34,227 nucleotides of DNA from positions 1-34,227 of IMG/VR virus record IMGVR_UViG_3300002461_000302. One strand, 5' to 3'. This document shows positions 3,387 to 34,227 of this stretch, piece by piece. The first letter of the stretch is position 1. Every line of letters begins with the position of its first letter. The stretch comes from a virus. Under the pieces are notes generated by a model. That model had not been told where the DNA came from, did not search any database, and saw only the letters and a program-made list of their open reading frames with translations. Both the position numbers and the translations under genes were made by a program.

Positions 3387-3629
3387 TCAGGCCGCGGCGG
3401 CGGTTTGTTGCGACTGCTGGCCGTCCTGCTGGGCGCGGGCTTTGCGTTTTTCGCGTGCCTCGATCTTGTCCCGCAGCGCCTCGAGCGCGCGGAAGTACGA
3501 AAGCCGGATGTCCTTCGCCTTGCCGCGCTTCAGCTTGCTGATAGTCGCCTGCGGAATCTTGGTTTCTTCTTCAATCTCTTCCTGCGTGTAGGTGCGCAGG
3601 AGGTTGATTACAAGGGCTTGAGCTTCCAT
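3387..3629 (-). CDS. cro: Cro-like HTH regulator (first gene of the early-right operon)
   Basis: 80 aa. HTH segment YTQEEIEEETKIPQATISKLKRG. AAGGAG RBS. Divergent from the CI gene across a 79-bp operator region. Confidence 0.7.
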   Translation of the reverse strand: MEAQALVINLLRTYTQEEIEEETKIPQATISKLKRGKAKDIRLSYFRALEALRDKIEAREKRKARAQQDGQQSQQTAAAA

Positions 3630-3648
3630 GCTGTCGATACTCCTTAAT

Positions 3649-3665
3649 GGATATTCCTTATATCC
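3649..3665. promoter_or_regulatory. 17-bp operator-like inverted repeat GGATAT-N5-ATATCC
   Basis: Perfect 6-5-6 dyad overlapping the -10 of the PR-like promoter. A related 8-bp palindrome, GAATATTC, lies at 3681-3688 and recurs at 4860-4867. Confidence 0.6.
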
Positions 3666-3690
3666 TACACAAGCGCAAAAGAATATTCAA
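3662..3690 (-). promoter_or_regulatory. PR-like sigma70 promoter for the cro-like operon
   Basis: On the minus strand: TTGAAT (3690-3685), a 17-nt spacer, then TAGGAT (3667-3662). The AAGGAG RBS and ATG at 3629 lie downstream. Confidence 0.55.
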
Positions 3691-3708
3691 GTGCGGGACA
3701 CTCGAAAC

Positions 3709-4347
3709 ATGCCGAATCTCGCAAAAAGATTGAAATTTGCACGCCAGCAGGCGGGCATGACCCAAAAGCAACTGGCCGACGCTGCCGTCATGCGCCAGAG
3801 TGATATTTCCAAAATCGAAAATGGAGACATCCAGCGGACTACGTACATAGGCCAGCTGTCCCGGGCGCTTGGGTGTGATCCGATCTGGCTTGAGACTGGC
3901 GACGGCGCGCTGGTGAAGGGTGCGCACCTCGAGCCCGGGCCGGTGCTAAGCGGGAGGATCCCGCTTATTTCCTGGGTACAGGCCGGCGCATGGTCGGGCG
4001 CACAGGATCCGCTGGCGCCTGGTGATGCAGAGGCATGGCTGGCCAGCCCGGCAACCCCTACGCCTGGAGCGTTTGCCCTGCGGGTGCGCGGTGACAGCAT
4101 GACGGCTGCCGGCGTGGGCAAGTCCTACCCGGAGGGGTCAATAATTTTTGTGAATCCTGAACGTCGGGCGCCGGTCAACGGTGAACGAGTCATCGCCAAG
4201 CTGGACGGCTCGGACGAGGTGACATTCAAGGTTTACAAAAACGAGGACGGGCGCCAATGGCTGCAGCCTCTGAACCCGGCGCATTTGCCGATCCGTGATG
4301 AATTCAGGGTGCTGGGCACCGTTTTTGGAAAGTGGGAACCCGAATGA
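3709..4347 (+). CDS. cI: CI-type repressor: N-terminal XRE-family HTH plus C-terminal S24 (LexA-like) autopeptidase
   Basis: 212 aa from the ATG at 3709. HTH MTQKQLADAAVMRQSDISKIENG. S24 Ser/Lys dyad context RVRGDSM ... RVIAKL. The track ORF start at 3628 would overlap cro and the operators. Confidence 0.9.
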   Translation: MPNLAKRLKFARQQAGMTQKQLADAAVMRQSDISKIENGDIQRTTYIGQLSRALGCDPIWLETGDGALVKGAHLEPGPVLSGRIPLISWVQAGAWSGAQDPLAPGDAEAWLASPATPTPGAFALRVRGDSMTAAGVGKSYPEGSIIFVNPERRAPVNGERVIAKLDGSDEVTFKVYKNEDGRQWLQPLNPAHLPIRDEFRVLGTVFGKWEPE

Positions 4348-4559
4348 ATCTCAAGCTGTACCTTAAAACCCTGCCGGGCCGCGTGGTCTTCACCCTGCTG
4401 GTCATGTTGGTGTGGTGGCTGGCCGTCGAATTCTGGCCAGACAATGAGGAACCCGCGCCCGTGGCCGCCGGGCAATGCGTGGGGCTGCAGTGCACCTATG
4501 CGGACGACACGGCAAAGGCCTTGCAGGCGCAGGACCAGCTGACGCCAGCGAAAAAATAA
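4344..4559 (+). CDS. Small membrane protein co-transcribed with cI (candidate exclusion/immunity accessory, rexB/sie-like position)
   Basis: 71 aa. ATGA overlap with the cI stop. One strong TM helix (VVFTLLVMLVWWLAVEFW). Confidence 0.6.
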   Translation: MNLKLYLKTLPGRVVFTLLVMLVWWLAVEFWPDNEEPAPVAAGQCVGLQCTYADDTAKALQAQDQLTPAKK

Positions 4560-4564
4560 CCGCC

Positions 4565-4813
4565 TCAGTGTTTCGGCAGCCCCGCGCCCGGGGTGTCGCC
4601 GTCCGCCAGTTCTCCCAAAACCTCCCGCACTGAATCTAATTCAGCCGGCGGAAGGTCGGCCATGGTCCCCAGGATGTACTCCCTGCGCGTGCCGTCGGCC
4701 ATAGTCAACACCAGCACCGCCCCCGGCAATTCCCCAGCCTCTGCCAGCGCCAGCAGTCGCTGAATTTCCAGCACCACCGCCTGGTGTTCCGGGGATTTGG
4801 GCGTTTTCGTCAT
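4565..4813 (-). CDS. Hypothetical 82-aa acidic protein, convergent with the cI operon and divergent from the PL-like promoter
   Basis: Isolated minus-strand ORF between two plus-strand units. No RBS is visible and no motif was recognised. Confidence 0.45.
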   Translation of the reverse strand: MTKTPKSPEHQAVVLEIQRLLALAEAGELPGAVLVLTMADGTRREYILGTMADLPPAELDSVREVLGELADGDTPGAGLPKH

Positions 4814-4851
4814 TTATTTTTTCACTGTTACAAAAAATACGCGCAAAAGGA

Positions 4852-4882
4852 TTGACCTGGAATATTCATTTGGGAATATAAT
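4852..4882 (+). promoter_or_regulatory. PL-like promoter for the early-left operon, with operator-like GAATATTC/GGAATAT sites
   Basis: TTGACC (4852-4857) and a perfect TATAAT (4877-4882). The 19-nt spacer is long. GAATATTC at 4860-4867 and GGAATAT at 4859-4865 and 4873-4879 lie inside it. AT-rich context. Confidence 0.5.
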
Positions 4883-4921
4883 GGACACAAGGCCCGGGTG
4901 TTCTGGGCAGGAGAAAGCAAG

Positions 4922-13719: not shown

Positions 13720-15360
13720 TCAATCGCTTGAGTCAAAAGCCAGCTCGTGCACGCCCGCGGAATTTGCCCAATTGTGGGTTTGGCCCTCTGTTGGAATCCC
13801 GACTATTTGCCCAATGCGGACGGGTGTGTCGGCAATGGCGCCCGCCCCGGAATCGATGTAATCGTCCGGCTGGGTGGTGCTCAAAGGATTGAATTCTTTC
13901 AGCTGGTCATAGGCCGGGCTGTCCCACACCGATGAATGCGCCCACAGCACGCGCATAGACAGCGGGGGCTCGAAGGCGTCCAGGATCCGCTTTTGCTTGT
14001 TGATGGTGGAATGGTCCTCCAGCACGCCGCAGGCCACGGCCGGCAGCATGGCGCCGGGCTCCCCTTGTCCTGCCAGGTGTTTGTGCAGGCGGGCCGGCAC
14101 AAAGCCCCCCGCCCCATTGGTTTCCACGGTAACGGCCGGGATGCTGTACTGAATCACCATTTGCCGCACGCGCCGGCACTGGTCATCAAGGTCCCCGGTC
14201 AGGCCTTCGGCAACTTGCCAGTACAGTGCACCGGCCGCGTCGGTCAGCACCAGCGAGAAAGCGGAGGCGTCGGATTTTATCTTCCCCAGCGACACATCCC
14301 AGCGCGCACATGCGCCCACAATTTGCACCGAACCCAGCTGCATGACGGCTTCGCGGTTGCGATAAACAACCTTGGGGATGTCTGCATATTCGCGCATCCG
14401 GTCCGGATCCAGGCGAGTCTCCCCTACGGGCTTGGCCTCCATCTGGTATTGGCTGTCCCAGGCGTTCAGCGTGCTGGTGTCCTTGCGGCGCTGCTCGATG
14501 TCGGCGCGGGTGAAGCGCTCGGGCCAGGCGCAGCCGGCGTAAATGTCCAGCACGGCGCCGGGGACTTGCTTCAAGGTGATGGTGCGGCCTTTGACTTCGT
14601 AGTCCTTGCCCTCCACCAGCATCCGGGAGAATTTGCCGATGCCCAGCAGCAGGTAATACCCGTCCGGGCCCGCGTCGAAAGTCAAGTGATAGACCGACTT
14701 GTCGCCCGTCAGGCTGCGGTATTGGTGTTCAAAAAGCGGGATTTTCAGCACGGCCGCGCCTCCGTCGATCTGTTCGGTGTAAATGGATTTGTGCGTGTGC
14801 GGCGTGCCTATGTAGGTTTTCTGAACACCAGGCACGCCAATGTGGGTTGACTCTTCGATCTTCTGGCGCAGGTTCTGCCGGGCCTCGGGAGTCTTGATGT
14901 TTTTCGGGACTTCGACATCATCAAAATCAATCTTGTTGGCACGGAACCCGGTTGCATTGCTGTTAACTCCCACGGCCGACATGCTGGGGTTGCGCGCGTC
15001 AGTCGCGCCGTTTACGGTGAAGGATTGCGCGCCAGGCTTAGGCGGCAGAATTCCCCGCGTCAGCGGGTGCCGGCGCAGCACGTTAATGGTGTCTTTCGTC
15101 AGCTTGGTGGCTAGGTCGTCATCTGCCGCCCAAATCAGGGAAACATTTTCGGCATCGCAATACAGCAGCCACGCCTTGTAAACCGCGTAAATAGTGGACT
15201 TGCTGGCGCCTCGAAACACCATGAGCACGCGCACCAGGTCCGCCGTGTGCTCCAGCCAGTCGCACATGCGGACGTGCAAGTCCGGAACCTTCCACCTCTT
15301 GAGCTTCGCCCAAATGATGAAAAAAGCTAGGAAGCTGACCTTATCCGCGGGTCTTGGCAT
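13720..15360 (-). CDS. terL: Terminase large subunit (T7 gp19-like)
   Basis: 546 aa. Walker A-like FRGASKST and Walker B-like KIDFDDVE. The length and C-terminal nuclease-sized half fit. Overlaps the small-subunit candidate by 20 nt. Confidence 0.85.
   Translation of the reverse strand: MPRPADKVSFLAFFIIWAKLKRWKVPDLHVRMCDWLEHTADLVRVLMVFRGASKSTIYAVYKAWLLYCDAENVSLIWAADDDLATKLTKDTINVLRRHPLTRGILPPKPGAQSFTVNGATDARNPSMSAVGVNSNATGFRANKIDFDDVEVPKNIKTPEARQNLRQKIEESTHIGVPGVQKTYIGTPHTHKSIYTEQIDGGAAVLKIPLFEHQYRSLTGDKSVYHLTFDAGPDGYYLLLGIGKFSRMLVEGKDYEVKGRTITLKQVPGAVLDIYAGCAWPERFTRADIEQRRKDTSTLNAWDSQYQMEAKPVGETRLDPDRMREYADIPKVVYRNREAVMQLGSVQIVGACARWDVSLGKIKSDASAFSLVLTDAAGALYWQVAEGLTGDLDDQCRRVRQMVIQYSIPAVTVETNGAGGFVPARLHKHLAGQGEPGAMLPAVACGVLEDHSTINKQKRILDAFEPPLSMRVLWAHSSVWDSPAYDQLKEFNPLSTTQPDDYIDSGAGAIADTPVRIGQIVGIPTEGQTHNWANSAGVHELAFDSSD
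13789..13808 (-). repeat. Late-region motif copy C (19/20)
   Basis: tgttggaatcccgactattt inside the last 30 codons of terL, in a different reading frame from copy A. Lies 109 nt upstream of the tail fiber ATG. Confidence 0.9.
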
Positions 15361-18252: not shown

Positions 18253-18451
18253 GCTTAAAGTCCTTGAATTTCTGGTTTACCTTGCGGCCATGTTGGGCGG
18301 GGTTGTCCTGTTCGGCGCTGCCGTTCTTGGGAGCTGGAAAAACGGCGTCCGATACGCCGGGCAATGGTGCAAATACGTCCTCGGGCTGGCGTGTGTGGGC
18401 TCCATGCTGGGCTGGTCCTTCGTGCAGTTCATGCCCCTGCCCCCAGCGTAA
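18251..18451 (+). CDS. Candidate antisense moron: 66-aa protein with two TM helices
   Basis: The ATG shares the CATG with the start of the 846-aa gene on the other strand. The ORF exactly fills the 176-bp gap and ends 23 nt inside the 1014-aa gene. TM1 is FLVYLAAMLGGVVLFGAAVLG and TM2 is YVLGLACVGSMLGWSFVQF. Minus-strand frames in the gap do not look coding. Confidence 0.35.
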   Translation: MLKVLEFLVYLAAMLGGVVLFGAAVLGSWKNGVRYAGQWCKYVLGLACVGSMLGWSFVQFMPLPPA

Positions 18452-21400
18452 GCGCGCAATTTGCCGCCACCTCCAGCAGGTCGGCATCCCGGGCGCCCAG
18501 CTCCGTATCGGTGCCTTCCAAGGATTCGCGGCGGATCCGGTCCATTTCCTGCCTGACTGTCACGTCATTGCCCTGGGCGTCCTTGCCGACAACCATGTCC
18601 GGCGCGATGCGCTCCAGTTCAGCCACACGGCCCAGCACGGAACGGGTCAGCGGGTCCTTGTGCACCGGGGGCAGGTCATTGCCGAAAAGGCTGTTTTCTG
18701 GCAAAATCGGAGGTATGGACATGAAACTTCCTCCACTGCTGCCGGAATCCTTCCCGCCGGGCACAGTGTTTGCCGATGTGGAAGGCGTACCGGTAAGCAG
18801 ATCCCCCGATTGGGTTTGCACCGCTTGGGACAAAGTAGAGCCCCGCAGGTTCCCGGCCAAGTCGTTTGTTGACAATGGCGGCGTGCTGCCAGAGGACAAA
18901 TTCCGCGCGCTGGTGATGTCGTCCCACGCTGCCGTATAGATTTCTTTCTGCCGGGTTTCCAACTCGGTCAAGCGCGCAGCCTCATCTGGCGTAGGCGCGC
19001 GGTTCTCCCCCTCGATTTTCCGCAGTAGCGTATCGCTTTCAACGTACAGCGGGTGCGCGTCATGCTTGGCGGCCATCATTTCCGCCAGGTTGATTTGCAC
19101 CTCTGCCGTGTGCCCGTCGATCCGCACGTTCATTTTGACATCGCGGTATCCGTTCGGGTTTGTCGTCGGCTCTGTCAGGCCGTTGCGGAATCCCCCCTCC
19201 AGTACCTCGAAGCGCGCGCGCAGTTCGGCCAGCGCCTGCTCCACGTCCTGCAGCGACTTGACCACTACAGTACCCCGCACCAGGTCCTTTATGCGGGTGG
19301 CGTCCCCTTCATAGTCGGCCGCGATTTTTGCAGCAGCCCGGTCGGCCCCCTTGAGTTTGGCCAGCTTGAGCTGCGCGCCCAGGCGGTCGGCTACTTCCAT
19401 CAATCGGCCATCAAAAACCGGCTTCACCGCGCCGGCCTGCTCGTACATGCGGGCCAGCCCCGGCTCCATCGTCATGCCTTCGGGCGCCTTGAGAGGGGTC
19501 AGCCCCAGCTCGTCCCGGATCTGCGCCACGCGGTCCGCGTTCGTGCTCCAGTTGTCCCATGCCGCGCGCTCGGTTTGCAGCTCGGTGATGCGGCGCTGCA
19601 GGGCCTCGGGGTCCTTGATGTTGACGCCCTCGCGTTTTGCCAGCTCCGGCCGTTTTGACGCGCCCTGGACGGCCGCCAGGCTTTCGCCCAGCTCGCGCTG
19701 CTTGCGGCTGACCAGCGCGGCCATGCGGCCGGCTTCCTTCATGGCACTGTCATCAAAGCCGAACATATCGCCCGTGGTGTCGGCGCGTTCGCCCATCATG
19801 CTGCGGACGGCGTGCATGGTGTTGACGGCCTGGGTGATGGGCTTGCCGTCCTGCAGCGCCTGCTGGCCTACGGCTTGTAGGCGTCCGTCCCCGGGGGCAG
19901 CTCGGGCAATGGCCACGGCTGCATCATCGGAGAGCTGGCCGGCACGATGGGCGGCAATGAGGTCAGGTCCGCCATCAGCTGCGAGCGCGTAAGCCCGCTG
20001 TCCTGTTGAGCGCGCCAAAAGTCCGCGTGATTCTGCTTCGGCGCGGGTGAGTCCTGTTCCTTGAAAATACTGTACATAGTCGCCTACCTTTCCTTGTCCG
20101 TCGCGGATGTTGAGCTCGGCATCCAGCGCCGCCGCGCGCGCCGCTGTGAAACCGTCGGCCTCTCGGTGCACCTGGGCGGGGATGGTGGCCTCCCCGCTGC
20201 GGATCGCCAGGTCCCTGCGGTGGCGGCCGGAAATAACCTCGAGGCTGCCGTCCAGGCGCTCCCACACCTGAATGGGGGCCACGCCGGTGCGGTCGAATGT
20301 CCCGCCCAGGGGCTCCACCACGCCCTGAACATCGGCGCCGCCCTTGAATTGCGGCACGTCAGCGGACAATTTCAGCCCTGCCAGCGGCACCTCCACGACA
20401 GCCAGGTCCGTTTGAAACTGGTTCGGGTCGCGCGGCTGCGGCCCCCGGAGAATGGCCGCGGCCTCCCGTGGCGCGGTGGCTTCGCGCACGTCCTGCGCGA
20501 GCGTCAGGTTATGCGTCATGACTGCATCGGCCTGGTCAGGCGTCAGGCCGGCGCGTGCCGGCGCTTGTGCCTCACCGGTGACAGGCAAAGCGGTTTGTGC
20601 GCCAGATTCTGGTGAAAGTGGGACGCTACCGTCTGCTACCGGTTTGATAGCTGCTTGCGCACGACTGGCGCGGGCTGCACCGTGCATTGCATATGCGGCG
20701 AAGCCAGCAGGCACCAGGGAAGATACAGCCAGCCCCACCGGGTCCAGCGGGTCATAAGCCTCTGCCAAGTCCTTGTAATTCGCCTCCCGGAGAATGGACC
20801 GTGTGGCGGCCTGCTGCGCCACAAAGGCACCAGGCCCACCGGCCGCCCAGAGCCCGGCGGTCGCCAGGTAGGAGCCAGGCGCGGCCACCGGCAGCAGCAC
20901 GCCAGTAGTTGCCGCGGCACCGGTCAGCATGCCGACCTTTGTCCGGGTGGTCTTGTCCACGCCCTGCTGGCCCAGATCGTCGGCAGCCTTCATGCCTTCA
21001 TCGGCGCCCAGCATCACGGCGCCAGGCACGCCACCGCCGGCAACCGTGTAGCCCACGGCCTTGGTCATAAAGCGGGTCAGGTCATACGTCAGGCGCTCGG
21101 CCGTGCTTGCCGTGGCGGGGTCTGGCCGGTAGTTCAGTTCGACATTGCGGAAAGACCGGCCCAGGTTTGAAACCGTGTCCACGCCATCAGCCGCGATGCT
21201 GGCGCGCTGCTTTTCTGTCTCGCGCTGCTCTGTGTCGTTCGGGATGGAAAACATACCCCCGGCGCTGGCCGTGCCAGTCGCCGCCATCGTCTGGCCGTAG
21301 CCCTTGACGGAATCAGCCACAAAGGCGGCAGTCTCGCTGACGCCACCAGCCACGGCGCGCAATGGAGCGCTCCAGCCGTTCCACTTTGCAACCGGCTTTG

Positions 21401-21473
21401 CGCGCTCCGGCGGCATTGTGGCCAGGTTGTCGAGCGCCGCGTCCGTGTCGTTTTGGTACAGGTCGCCCAGCAT
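18429..21473 (-). CDS. Internal virion (gp16-position) polyvalent protein. N-terminal membrane-active region, ParB-like nuclease domain, RelA/SpoT-like nucleotidyltransferase domain.
   Basis: 1014 aa. ParB N-domain motif APIQVWERLDGSLEVISGRHRRDLAIRSGEATIPAQV (aa ~398-435). RelA/SpoT synthetase-like motifs KLKGADRAAAKI, IKDLVRGTVVV, NPNGYRDVKMNV, AEVQINL and HPLYVE (aa ~705-812). Gly/Ala-rich hydrophobic N-terminus. Confidence 0.8.
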   Translation of the reverse strand: MLGDLYQNDTDAALDNLATMPPERAKPVAKWNGWSAPLRAVAGGVSETAAFVADSVKGYGQTMAATGTASAGGMFSIPNDTEQRETEKQRASIAADGVDTVSNLGRSFRNVELNYRPDPATASTAERLTYDLTRFMTKAVGYTVAGGGVPGAVMLGADEGMKAADDLGQQGVDKTTRTKVGMLTGAAATTGVLLPVAAPGSYLATAGLWAAGGPGAFVAQQAATRSILREANYKDLAEAYDPLDPVGLAVSSLVPAGFAAYAMHGAARASRAQAAIKPVADGSVPLSPESGAQTALPVTGEAQAPARAGLTPDQADAVMTHNLTLAQDVREATAPREAAAILRGPQPRDPNQFQTDLAVVEVPLAGLKLSADVPQFKGGADVQGVVEPLGGTFDRTGVAPIQVWERLDGSLEVISGRHRRDLAIRSGEATIPAQVHREADGFTAARAAALDAELNIRDGQGKVGDYVQYFQGTGLTRAEAESRGLLARSTGQRAYALAADGGPDLIAAHRAGQLSDDAAVAIARAAPGDGRLQAVGQQALQDGKPITQAVNTMHAVRSMMGERADTTGDMFGFDDSAMKEAGRMAALVSRKQRELGESLAAVQGASKRPELAKREGVNIKDPEALQRRITELQTERAAWDNWSTNADRVAQIRDELGLTPLKAPEGMTMEPGLARMYEQAGAVKPVFDGRLMEVADRLGAQLKLAKLKGADRAAAKIAADYEGDATRIKDLVRGTVVVKSLQDVEQALAELRARFEVLEGGFRNGLTEPTTNPNGYRDVKMNVRIDGHTAEVQINLAEMMAAKHDAHPLYVESDTLLRKIEGENRAPTPDEAARLTELETRQKEIYTAAWDDITSARNLSSGSTPPLSTNDLAGNLRGSTLSQAVQTQSGDLLTGTPSTSANTVPGGKDSGSSGGSFMSIPPILPENSLFGNDLPPVHKDPLTRSVLGRVAELERIAPDMVVGKDAQGNDVTVRQEMDRIRRESLEGTDTELGARDADLLEVAANCALTLGAGA

Positions 21474-27417: not shown

Positions 27418-27449
27418 CAAACAAAAACGGGGAGCCCAAAGGCCCCCCG
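27418..27449 (-). terminator. Rho-independent terminator after the capsid/decoration genes
   Basis: Minus-strand RNA: an 8-9 bp GC stem (GGGGGGCC/GGCUCCCC with one G-U), a UUUG loop, then GUUUUUGUUUG. The plus-strand version has an A-C mismatch and no U-run. Confidence 0.7.
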
Positions 27450-27496
27450 TGTCAATGCGCCACCGCGTTGGAGACAGTCACGCGCTGGCAACTGCC

Positions 27497-28852: not shown

Positions 28853-29021
28853 GAATAGCTCCTGAAGTTTTGAACTTGGGTTGTTCGCCTTTCAGGGTGT
28901 CCATTGCTGGGCCTGGTTGTGCGCCTCACGCGGCCGGCTGCAGTCGCGTTACACGGGCTCTAACTCGAGGGTGTCCGGTTGCCAGACCGGGCCTATGGGA
29001 AGTAATGTCCCACTGGCCCGG

Positions 29022-29041
29022 TGTTGGAATCCCGACTTTTT
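29022..29041 (-). repeat. Late-region motif copy B
   Basis: Identical 20-mer that starts at the scaffold stop codon. Non-coding, 169 nt upstream of the capsid ATG, and followed by a 12-bp hairpin (28987-29021). Confidence 0.9.
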
Positions 29042-32143: not shown

Positions 32144-32506
32144 TTAAACCTTGTGGCCGTTGGGGTTCGAGCCGTACAGGGGCGGCACGTACCAACCCTT
32201 GTCGGTCATGGTCGGGGCGGTCAGCTTGGTCAGGTCCAGCGCTTCGATGGCTGGATGCTTTTCGACCACGGGCATGGATGCAACAGGTTTGCCGGCGTTG
32301 GCTTGCATTTGCTGGACAGCACCCAGCAAAGCGGCGATCTGTTTTGCCTGGGCTGCGACGGTGGCGGCAAGGTCGGCGGGGTCCACGGGATCCGGATCGT
32401 CGCCCAGCTGGACGCCAGTAGCCTGGAATGCGTCAGGGGCTGGCGCGTCAGGTGATGCGATGGCGGCGGCGCCGGGTGTTTCGAGGGTGCGGGTGGTACG
32501 GGCCAT
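32144..32506 (-). CDS. Hypothetical 120-aa acidic protein
   Basis: The ATG at 32506 has an AAGGA RBS. The track start at 32536 has none. Confidence 0.5.
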   Translation of the reverse strand: MARTTRTLETPGAAAIASPDAPAPDAFQATGVQLGDDPDPVDPADLAATVAAQAKQIAALLGAVQQMQANAGKPVASMPVVEKHPAIEALDLTKLTAPTMTDKGWYVPPLYGSNPNGHKV

Positions 32507-32565
32507 ATCGGGGCGTCCTTGGTTGATGCCGCACATGGCGGCGGGGTAGGAGCCCTGACTTTCGT

Positions 32566-32895
32566 TTAGGCGCTATGTTGGAATCCCGACTTTTTGCGGT
32601 CCGGCGCGTGGGCCCGTGCGGCTGATAGCAGGTCCTCCACGTTCAGCGGCAGGGCGTCCCGCGGGTGTTGTCGCTGGTTCTCTGGCAGAGTAGGGCCGAC
32701 AACCTGGACCCAGAGGTTTACCAGGGCTTCCCCGCCCGCGTGGCTGGGCTCTGCGTCGTTGTTTCGCCATCCGACGATGGTCCCGCGCGGCCAACCTATT
32801 GCCGCGCCGATCTGCGCGGGCCGGTAGCCCTTACCTTCCAGCTCCACGATTACGCGGAACCAGTCAACCCTGATACGTCCTGCCGTTGTTGCCAT
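32566..32895 (-). CDS. Small HTH DNA-binding protein (candidate late-gene regulator)
   Basis: 109 aa. HTH-like GYRPAQIGAAIGWPRGTIVGWRNN. Last gene before the structural block. Its 3' end contains copy A of the late motif. Confidence 0.5.
   Translation of the reverse strand: MATTAGRIRVDWFRVIVELEGKGYRPAQIGAAIGWPRGTIVGWRNNDAEPSHAGGEALVNLWVQVVGPTLPENQRQHPRDALPLNVEDLLSAARAHAPDRKKSGFQHSA
32576..32595 (-). repeat. Late-region motif copy A (minus strand AAAAAGTCGGGATTCCAACA)
   Basis: Plus strand tgttggaatcccgacttttt. Lies in the last codons of the HTH gene, 70 nt upstream of the ATG at 32506. A degenerate 13/18 copy lies at 32547-32564. Confidence 0.9.
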
Positions 32896-33752: not shown

Positions 33753-34141
33753 GGTGCTATACCTTTCATAGCGTGTTGTGCCCGTGTGGTGTGGGCGGGA
33801 GGGTGAAACTGTCCGAAGCCATAGCCGCCGGGCGTGTAGTCGATGCCATCAAAGGCAACAACCCGGGCGCCCATCACGGCAGGCAGGCCGGCCGCGTCCG
33901 TGCTGACGTATCCCATGCGCACGAGCTGCCGCAGGAATTCGGTTTGAAGTACCACGATTGGGGGATTGATTGCGCGCTCGATCTGGTCCAGCATGGCCTG
34001 CTGCCGGTGCCACACCTCCGTGGCGTTCATGCGCTGGTCAGGCGCCCAGACCTTGCCCAGGGGCATCAATACCCCAGACGCGACTGCAGCCGGTGCAAAG
34101 CCGGCCGCCAGGATTGAGCCAAGGAATCCCCGGCGCTTCAC
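33749..34141 (-). CDS. Predicted Tat-exported protein (130 aa from the GTG at 34141; the track offers a GTG at 34186)
   Basis: Twin-arginine signal KRRGFLGSILAAGFAPAAVASG. The GTG at 34141 is preceded by GGGG at about 7 nt. The longer version would translate the repeat-rich junction DNA. Confidence 0.5.
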   Translation of the reverse strand: MKRRGFLGSILAAGFAPAAVASGVLMPLGKVWAPDQRMNATEVWHRQQAMLDQIERAINPPIVVLQTEFLRQLVRMGYVSTDAAGLPAVMGARVVAFDGIDYTPGGYGFGQFHPPAHTTRAQHAMKGIAP

Positions 34142-34227
34142 GGGTTTACCCCACGTAAGCCACACTTGCGCCAGGAGGTAAGCCACGCTTGCACATGCAA
34201 GCCGGGCTTACGTGGTGAAAACCCTTG
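34134..34227. repeat. Right copy of the 94-bp direct terminal repeat
   Basis: Identical to 1-94. Confidence 0.95.

Follow-up and report, generated by a model that had tools for sequence, protein, structure and literature searches.

A repeated 20-nucleotide box as a probable recognition element of activator-dependent late promoters in temperate podoviruses

The window, i.e. the whole stretch of DNA that was analysed (34,227 nucleotides), is a complete phage genome of 34.1 kb with a 94-bp terminal direct repeat. The phage is a temperate podovirus, and temperate-phage genes are present: a CI/S24 repressor, an integrase, a replication initiator and a DnaC-like loader. Its late operon lies on the minus strand and has a T7/epsilon15-like gene order: portal, scaffold, capsid, tail tube A and B, internal virion proteins and pilot protein, followed by the small and large terminase, fibre and lysis genes. 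When 40 ORFs were scanned against PHROG and Pfam, no RNA polymerase or sigma gene was detected. The virion proteins of 705, 846 and 1014 aa have no polymerase relative among PDB structures, and the largest early ORF is the 392-aa integrase. An earlier note on this DNA had stated that the phage has no RNA polymerase gene, and the scans agree with it. Megablast with 22 kb of the window against GenBank phages gave nothing. It is important to note that no consensus sigma70 promoter was found between positions 20000 and 34227 of the window, where 1.8 were expected. The features that are needed below are the following.

3628-4347: CI/S24 repressor gene, separate from that of the 109-aa helix-turn-helix (HTH) protein
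13771-13776, minus strand: predicted −10-like hexamer of box copy C, CACAAT; predicted start at ~13764
13789-13808, minus strand: box copy C, found by exact match and by weight matrix
27427-27450, minus strand: intrinsic terminator (10-bp stem with 8 G-C pairs, T-run) that ends the unit of box B, capsid gene and 152-aa gene
28853-29003, minus strand: predicted 5′ leader of the capsid mRNA
29004-29009, minus strand: predicted −10-like hexamer of box copy B, GACATT; predicted start at ~28997
29022-29041, minus strand: box copy B, found by exact match and by weight matrix
32558-32563, minus strand: predicted −10-like hexamer of box copy A, GAAAGT, 13 nt past the core; predicted start at ~32551
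32566-32895, minus strand: gene of the 109-aa HTH protein, candidate late activator; box A overlaps its 3′ end
32576-32595, minus strand: box copy A, found by exact match and by weight matrix (21.4 bits)

The sequence AAAWAGTCGGGATTCCAACA has exactly three matches in the window, all of them on the minus strand (13789-13808, 29022-29041 and 32576-32595). Allowing up to 3 mismatches adds no further site in the window. Shuffled sequence contains 0.01 matches on average, and none of 100 shuffles reaches three. The three 20-nt copies on the late strand had been described in the earlier note, and both the exact matches and the shuffle statistics bear them out. A weight matrix made from relatives only, with the window excluded, finds the same three sites with scores of 19.6-28.5 bits; the best score in 30 shuffles is 7.2 bits. 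The earlier note had also pointed to a degenerate copy at 32547-32564 with 13 of 18 positions matching. On recounting, 12 of 18 match, and sites with at least 12/18 matches occur 14 times in the window versus 7.6 times in shuffles, which is near chance.

The three copies are placed in different coding contexts. Copy A consists of AAAAA (32595-32591), the 14-mer core GTCGGGATTCCAAC (32590-32577) and a final A. It lies within the 3′ end of the 109-aa HTH gene, where it is read as ...KKSGFQHSA-stop, with the pre-portal and portal genes downstream. From the end of copy A to the next start there are 40 nt (ATG at 32536) or 70 nt (ATG at 32506), and the latter ATG has the better ribosome-binding site. 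L129 and L130, two close relatives, have a box at the position of copy A, which is equivalent to box 2 of Pseudomonas-type prophages. Copy B (AAAAA at 29041-29037, core at 29036-29023) begins at the scaffold stop codon (TAA-AAAGTCGGG...), and the major capsid gene follows 170 nt downstream. Copy C (AAATA at 13808-13804, core at 13803-13790) is located inside the 3′ end of terL and is read as ...GQIVGIPTEGQ... in a frame unlike that of copy A. It lies upstream of the tail fibre and lysis genes, with 109 nt between the motif end and the fibre gene. These contexts are as the earlier note had given them (KKSGFQH for A, QIVGIPT in another frame for C, the scaffold stop codon for B).

Between copy B and the capsid gene, the predicted leader contains two hairpin elements of the form AGGCCCG-loop-CGGACACCCTG (28993-28967 and 28913-28893). 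Almost all relatives have them as well, and the inner stem shows covariation. A search of Rfam gave no credible family anywhere in the window, these hairpins included.

Conservation of the box was followed in 49 loci fetched via the capsid protein, with capsid identities of 25-91%. Most relatives whose sequence extends far enough upstream have a related box ~150-190 nt before the capsid gene, so that the motif does recur at syntenic positions, and most carry one to three further copies, upstream and downstream. Relatives that share just 40-60% capsid identity, among them Pseudomonas prophages and YeP5, have the box at matching positions. In YeP5, an inducible isolate from Yersinia enterocolitica, boxes precede the lysis cassette, the pre-portal genes, the capsid gene and terS. 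Relatives of terL were gathered by protein search and contig look-ups, and the terL-internal box stands at the identical place in L064-L069, L127 and L128 (83, 81, 71, 64 and 60% terL identity). From 72 non-redundant instances the family consensus is AAATA-GTCGG-GAWN-CCGWC. Applied to 936 kb of relatives, the weight matrix gives 112 matches in the direction of the late genes and 2 in the opposite one. The motif is old and has been conserved far past sequence drift.

Beyond these relatives, a scan of one genome per species found multi-copy clusters only in prophage-sized regions of Pseudomonas and Stenotrophomonas, which indicates that the box is phage-specific and not a host repeat. Single matches in the same scan came from Massilia, Pseudoduganella, Rhodoferax, Accumulibacter and Nevskia (Burkholderiales and other Gammaproteobacteria), and the remaining single matches were at about chance level. 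The exact 16-mer AGTCGGGATTCCAACA, searched across viral contigs, brought up no relatives, only single matches about as often as chance predicts. In the low-GC relatives Piluca, TPWB-05 and vB_EcoM_APEC no box could be detected, and HTH homologues are distant or absent. In Piluca, CACCCAACAAA is repeated before late blocks instead.

The box is followed by a second conserved element. A hexamer nAnAnT is present 13 nt past the 14-mer core, and the spacer between them is variable and C-rich. In the 72 contexts, box position 29 is A in 64 cases and position 33 is T in 68, and most spacer and flank columns contain less than ~0.6 bit. Against circularity, contexts were re-selected by picking sites on the 20-nt box alone with the over-represented Pseudomonas group left out. 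In these 49 contexts the pattern is retained (A29 in 38, A31 in 32 and T33 in 40). An A at −11 and a T at −7 are the hallmark of sigma70-family −10 elements, and a −10 with A-11/T-7 at a fixed position is what we find here. Note that the hexamers are weak, with two or three positions conserved, and that a few sites are 1 nt off or lack the A (L018, L035, L127). GACATT, the hexamer of copy B, also follows the capsid-gene box in L118, L120 and L129. The shared downstream flank ACA-NN-G[C/G]GCC proposed in the earlier note is not kept across the family; the conserved feature is the hexamer.

If the hexamer occupies −12 to −7, the centre of the dyad would fall at ~−32.5 and the A-tract at ~−44 to −40. 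With this assumed start site, the whole box would extend from ~−44 to −25 and take the place of the −35 element. The −35 slot reads GGAWNC (box positions 5-10) and not TTGACA, and there is no −35-like hexamer. Such absence is the expected state of an activator-dependent promoter. At the predicted place of the A-tract, UP elements are contacted by the alpha subunit of RNA polymerase. Alternative sigma factors were considered and rejected. For sigma32, sigma28, sigma54 and ECF factors, judged by inspection only, the spacings do not fit and there is no sigma gene; runs resembling CCCCAT are not at a constant distance, and the window lacks them.

The arrangement of terminators around the boxes also bears on where transcription begins. 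In 19 distinct contexts, nearly all of them the capsid-gene copy and YeP5 included, the box is preceded at a distance of a few nt by the end of a hairpin plus T-run that resembles a terminator. With terminators just before its box, the capsid gene needs a fresh transcription start. Together with the lack of a consensus sigma70 promoter in the late region, the upstream terminators argue that transcription starts at the box. A different arrangement is seen in 17 contexts, where an intrinsic terminator comes after the box and the holin, endolysin and Rz genes lie downstream of it. All but one of these are the first box of a Pseudomonas-type prophage. In the window no terminator follows box A.

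Variation of the box between genomes suggests what kind of factor reads it. The 14-mer is an imperfect dyad, GTCGG-GAWN-CCGWC in the family and GTCGG-GATT-CCAAC in the window phage. The box type is uniform in each genome and varied between genomes, and the change is often symmetric in both half-sites:

GCCGG..CCGGC: L040 and L127
GGCGG..CCGCC: L121
GACGG..CCGTC: L026
GACGA..TCGTC: L124 and L126
GTTGA..CCAAC: L117
CCAAC as the right half: all copies in the window and in close relatives

The right half-site is often degenerate (CCGTC, CCGCA, CCGAA, CCAAC). Variants that are uniform within a genome and divergent between genomes point to a dimeric binder that is encoded by the phage genome and co-evolves with its site, rather than to a host factor.

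The most likely candidate for this binder is the 109-aa HTH protein, judging from its gene context and predicted fold. The protein matches PHROG 16553 (E=2e-11), which is labelled 'transcriptional repressor'. Pfam gave nothing at the curated cutoff, only sub-threshold generic HTH matches, and no HTH_3, Phage_CII or Q-family domain. NCBIfam contained no match for it, and a profile search of PDB sequences returned nothing relevant. In the AlphaFold model (pLDDT 83), the HTH comprises residues 26-45 (helices 26-33 and 37-45). The nearest folds are Cro/C1-type HTH domains, e.g. P22 c2, restriction-modification controllers and SinR; the Foldseek E-values are weak (at least 0.03) and the TM-scores are 0.6-0.7 when normalised to the targets. 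C.BclI, C.AhdI, C.Esp1396I and C.Kpn2I are the controller proteins among the nearest matches of the model. The family comprises 868 clusters at 50% identity, all without an assigned name.

The genes of the HTH family and the boxes are found close together. HTH homologues are present in 62 loci, and a box lies on the same strand within 3 kb downstream in 56 of them. In 32 of these loci the box is −69 to +49 nt from the HTH stop codon; over the 56 loci the median distance is 9.5 nt. When ten loci were fetched via the HTH protein, eight had a box at the 3′ end of the gene or up to ~320 nt past the stop codon and two had none. In the close relative L129 the HTH gene is the final gene of the early rightward operon, directly before the late genes. 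The residues of the predicted recognition helix differ in lineages with divergent boxes, a comparison that covers a handful of lineages only. A role of the protein as small terminase acting on a pac site was rejected: the Terminase_5 match is weak (E=0.007), the gene and terL are far apart, the sites stand ahead of late blocks and the hexamer is left unexplained.

Taking these results together, we consider it probable that each copy of the box marks a late promoter that depends on an activator and is used by the host sigma70-type RNA polymerase, the box being its upstream recognition element. The earlier note had offered a late promoter or activator site, used by host RNA polymerase plus a phage factor such as the neighbouring 109-aa HTH protein, as one reading of the motif. 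Five comparative lines now back it: the hexamer at a fixed distance, the upstream terminators, the orientation of the matches (112 versus 2), the genome-specific variants and the adjacency of the HTH gene. The full promoter would consist of the A-tract AAAWA, the 14-bp imperfect dyad, a 13-nt variable spacer and the weak −10 element nAnAnT. The HTH protein would be made from the last gene of the early operon, and its dimer would bind the dyad and recruit or stabilise RNA polymerase. In this way three late units may be switched on: pre-portal and portal from copy A, capsid from copy B, fibre and lysis from copy C. The capsid unit would be closed by its own terminator, giving a layout like that of T7 phi10/Tphi without a phage polymerase. 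We infer from the comparative pattern that transcription starts at the boxes and that they are bound by the HTH protein, acting as an activator and not as a repressor. It is important to note that a dyad at ~−32.5 would be unusual: classical class II activators bind at −41.5 and Mu C at −43.5. The simple activator model also leaves the terminator after the first box of Pseudomonas-type prophages unexplained.

Other readings of the box have to be weighed against this one. If the box were an operator, the HTH protein or another phage protein would repress the late promoters at it, as a timer or for silencing in the lysogen. The PHROG 16553 label and the repressors P22 c2 and SinR among the nearest folds agree with such a role, and, with the dyad centred at −35, a bound protein would keep sigma region 4 out. 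We nevertheless regard repression as unlikely. With GGAWNC in the place of a −35 hexamer and a weak −10, the promoters are not expected to fire alone, and the phage already has a separate CI/S24 repressor. Moreover, the HTH gene ends the early lytic operon just before the late genes, and it is at the end of the early operon that lambda Q and other late activators or antiterminators are encoded. This same position, being that of Q, raises another option: the box may be the loading site of a Q-like factor, with the HTH protein joining RNA polymerase and making it terminator-resistant. The 17 contexts in which box, terminator and holin/endolysin/Rz genes follow each other resemble the lambda layout of Q, pR′, tR′ and S-R-Rz. 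On the other side, Pfam and NCBIfam detect no Q-family domain, the promoters are without the strong −35 and −10 of the pR′ type, and there are 3-4 boxes per genome. In addition, terminators right before the capsid-gene boxes imply that upstream transcripts stop, and box A of the window has no terminator past it. Loading of a Q-like factor therefore appears improbable to us. We give a similarly low chance to a related and broader possibility, that the HTH protein at −35 stands in for the contact of sigma region 4 or rides RNA polymerase as a Q-like antiterminator. If this is true, each box would be a reloading point along the late operon, which would account for the terminator past the first box in Pseudomonas-type prophages.

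Action of the motif as RNA, whether as a processing-site hairpin, as a 5′ stabiliser or as a nut/boxB-like antitermination signal, is suggested by the consensus GUCGG-GAAA-CCGAC. Folded as RNA, this sequence would give five pairs capped by a GNRA-like loop (−8.7 kcal/mol, z=−2.9). Matched substitutions in the two arms are seen in some lineages, and an A/U-rich stretch stands ahead of the hairpin. In the window phage, however, the pairing is broken. The 5-bp hairpin of the earlier note does form on the plus (antisense) strand, with a G-U pair; on the mRNA-sense strand a C-A mismatch interrupts it in all three window copies and in close relatives, and the sense RNA is predicted to fold without it (z=+0.2), which speaks against the RNA processing site that the note had also considered. 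One or two outer pairs are broken in many lineages (CCGTC, CCGTA, CCGCA, CCGAA), and the loops GAUU, GAAC and GAUC are not of the GNRA type. A dimeric protein would account for palindromic covariation at its site just as well, the fixed-distance nAnAnT and the directly upstream terminators would be left unexplained, and the promoter model puts the box upstream of the start site. We consider an RNA element quite unlikely. A promoter, or its relic, for a single-subunit or otherwise unrecognised RNA polymerase in the style of T7 class III is suggested by the positions of the boxes, which mirror phi10 and phi17, and by the T7/epsilon15-like structural module. The likeness to phi10, gene 10 and Tphi noted earlier is substantiated by the order of box B, capsid and 152-aa genes and the strong terminator after the capsid block (27450-27427). 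Yet no polymerase or sigma family was found in the 40 scanned ORFs, solved structures contain no polymerase related to any of the three large virion proteins, and the early ORFs are all of 392 aa or less. Like sigma-dependent promoters, the element has two parts, with 13 variable nt between the core and an A-11/T-7 hexamer, and is not one contiguous block from −17 to +6. The element is under strong present-day constraint and is thus not a relic, contrary to what the earlier note had allowed for. Such a polymerase promoter is highly improbable. Just as remote is the reading of the copies as weak intrinsic terminators of the plus (antisense) strand or as DNA sites for packaging, replication or recombination. 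Copies A and B are picked up on the plus strand by a simple terminator scan (GTTGGAATCCCGAC with TTTTT after it), but the stem has 5 pairs including G-U (−5.3 kcal/mol, z=−0.7), TATTT follows in copy C, and a terminator needs neither 20-nt identity nor a fixed downstream hexamer. As for DNA sites, the boxes always precede late blocks and do not lie at genome ends or within the immunity, origin or terminase regions.

The activator-dependent promoter proposed here can be compared with known phage systems, of which Mu C/Mor is functionally the closest. Mu has four dispersed promoters for its late genes (Plys, PI, PP and Pmom) that are used by sigma70 RNA polymerase and have a −10 without a −35 hexamer, and its C protein is a small dimeric HTH activator that binds an imperfect dyad overlapping the −35 region and centred at −43.5 (PMC2582627). 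The box promoters share the −10, the missing −35 and the imperfect dyad over the −35 region. In Mu the activator comes from the preceding temporal gene class, and so does the candidate HTH gene. There are differences as well. The Mu C site is 16 bp at −43.5, whereas here a 14-bp dyad plus A-tract would be centred at ~−32.5, i.e. about one helical turn closer. The HTH of Mu C is C-terminal and TrpR-like; that of the 109-aa protein is N-terminal and Cro/C1-like, with no match to the Mor/C family. In addition, the window phage, unlike Mu, is a podovirus with a T7/epsilon15-like structural module.

Lambda CII binds at the −35 of PRE, PI and PaQ, promoters with no −35 consensus and a poor −10. It acts as a tetramer on the direct repeats TTGC-N6-TTGC and drives lysogeny genes. 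The likeness would lie in a small HTH protein at −35; in our case, however, the site is an inverted repeat, the genes are late lytic ones and no Phage_CII domain was detected. The C proteins of restriction-modification systems are likewise small Cro/C1-type HTH dimers that activate from short palindromes at or near −35. The resemblance in fold is a partial one, and their C-boxes differ in being paired operators, upstream of the controller's own gene and a restriction gene, with built-in repression, while here there is one dyad per promoter and no restriction-modification context. With T7 class III promoters the boxes share repetition before highly expressed late blocks, a capsid gene between promoter and terminator, and a related gene order. 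They are unlike these in that the T7 promoter is a contiguous 23-bp site for a phage RNA polymerase, and here the element is bipartite and sigma-type, with no polymerase. The MotA box of T4 middle promoters is centred at −30 and needs AsiA, which remodels sigma, and the P1 Lpa late box is a 9-bp inverted repeat near −22 that needs SspA of the host. Both resemble the present case in combining a phage box in the −35 place with a host-type −10; no homologues of MotA, AsiA or Lpa were detected in the window phage. In the literature searched there is no description of the box or the HTH protein, and box-variant sequences gave only unrelated primer coincidences. The YeP prophage paper contains no discussion of promoters. 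The regulatory logic is a familiar one, with a new protein and a new site, and no new principle is involved.

Our results propose a late-transcription switch for a widespread and unstudied group of temperate podoviruses whose virion genes are T7/epsilon15-like and which lack an RNA polymerase gene. The hosts of this group include Pseudomonas, Stenotrophomonas, Yersinia enterocolitica O:9, Comamonadaceae and Oxalobacteraceae. A role is thereby proposed for a family of small 'hypothetical' proteins, together with a predicted DNA site. The predicted regulon would include the lysis, portal, capsid, pilot protein or terminase, and fibre blocks. Natural variants of the box, with the protein that belongs to each, would be of use in studies of specificity, as orthogonal expression parts and in annotating the late operons of prophages. 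If the proposed switch operates in this way, the T7-style layout of promoter, capsid and terminator may be retained while the host enzyme carries out transcription.

In the Pseudomonas-type prophages the first copy of the box, the 20-nt motif found before late gene blocks, lies at about position 4000-4900 in each locus. A strong intrinsic terminator is located approximately 15 nt past the transcription start predicted for this box (loci L034, L036-L038, L043-L046, L048-L051, L053 and L055-L057), and the genes for holin, endolysin and Rz are found downstream of it. The succession of box, terminator and lysis genes is similar to the layout of pR'-tR' in phage lambda. A simple activator model leaves this layout unexplained.

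A hairpin element was noticed in the predicted leader of the capsid mRNA:

28853-29003, minus strand, predicted capsid mRNA leader
28993-28967 and 28913-28893, minus strand, the two copies of the hairpin element

The element has the form AGGCCCG-loop-CGGACACCCTG. It is kept in nearly all relatives, its inner stem shows covariation, and no Rfam family matches it. A related sequence, (GGA)CACCCAACAAA, is present in four copies upstream of late gene blocks in Alcaligenes phage Piluca. The hairpins could influence how the capsid message is translated or processed, or how stable it is.

Regarding the 109-aa HTH protein, the candidate box-binding activator, some relatives encode 149-aa homologues (P0010 and P0011) that contain the HTH domain twice in tandem. 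At locus L117 the box is GTTGA-GATT-CCAAC, in which the window-type right half-site takes its most symmetric form. One lineage has a perfect palindrome, GCCGGGATTCCGGC, immediately after the HTH gene (L031, position 5204; L039, position 5465). It has neither the A-tract nor the −10-like hexamer, and the true boxes (GTCGGGAAYCCG..) of this lineage are found farther downstream. The palindrome may serve autoregulation, or it may be a box that has decayed.

Repeats were noticed at the two ends of the window and inside the replication-initiator gene:

1-94 and 34134-34227, exact 94-bp terminal direct repeat
1702-2658, replication-initiator gene (HTH_36)
2183-2357, iteron-like repeats of TGCACTAG inside the initiator gene

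The 94-bp repeat contains recurring GTAAGCC words as well as an inverted repeat of 31 nt, whose arms lie at 6-36 and 64-94. The 94-bp repeat may reflect genuine terminal redundancy; alternatively, a circular molecule may have been assembled with an overlap that covers a regulatory region. The TGCACTAG repeats occur in both direct and inverted orientation. This region is probably the origin of replication, in a position comparable to that of lambda ori inside gene O.

Two further genes lie in the late region:

about 18254-18440, plus strand, small membrane-protein ORF (MLKVLEFLVYLAAMLGGVVLFGAAVLG...)
18429-21473, minus strand, 1014-aa internal virion (ejection) protein gene

The membrane-protein ORF is antisense, between the genes for the 1014-aa and 846-aa proteins. 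This spot looks like a moron insertion site, because relatives carry other small reverse-oriented genes there (L068, 6937-7131; Yersinia phage YeP5, 31917-33070). The 1014-aa protein combines a ParB-like motif and a RelA/SpoT-like domain in one chain. The latter matches Tas1 (PDB 6ox6, E=3e-11, over residues 656-805), a type VI secretion (p)ppApp-synthetase toxin, and also Pfam PF04607 (E=6e-5). Through this virion protein, a nucleotide-pyrophosphokinase may be co-injected with the phage DNA.
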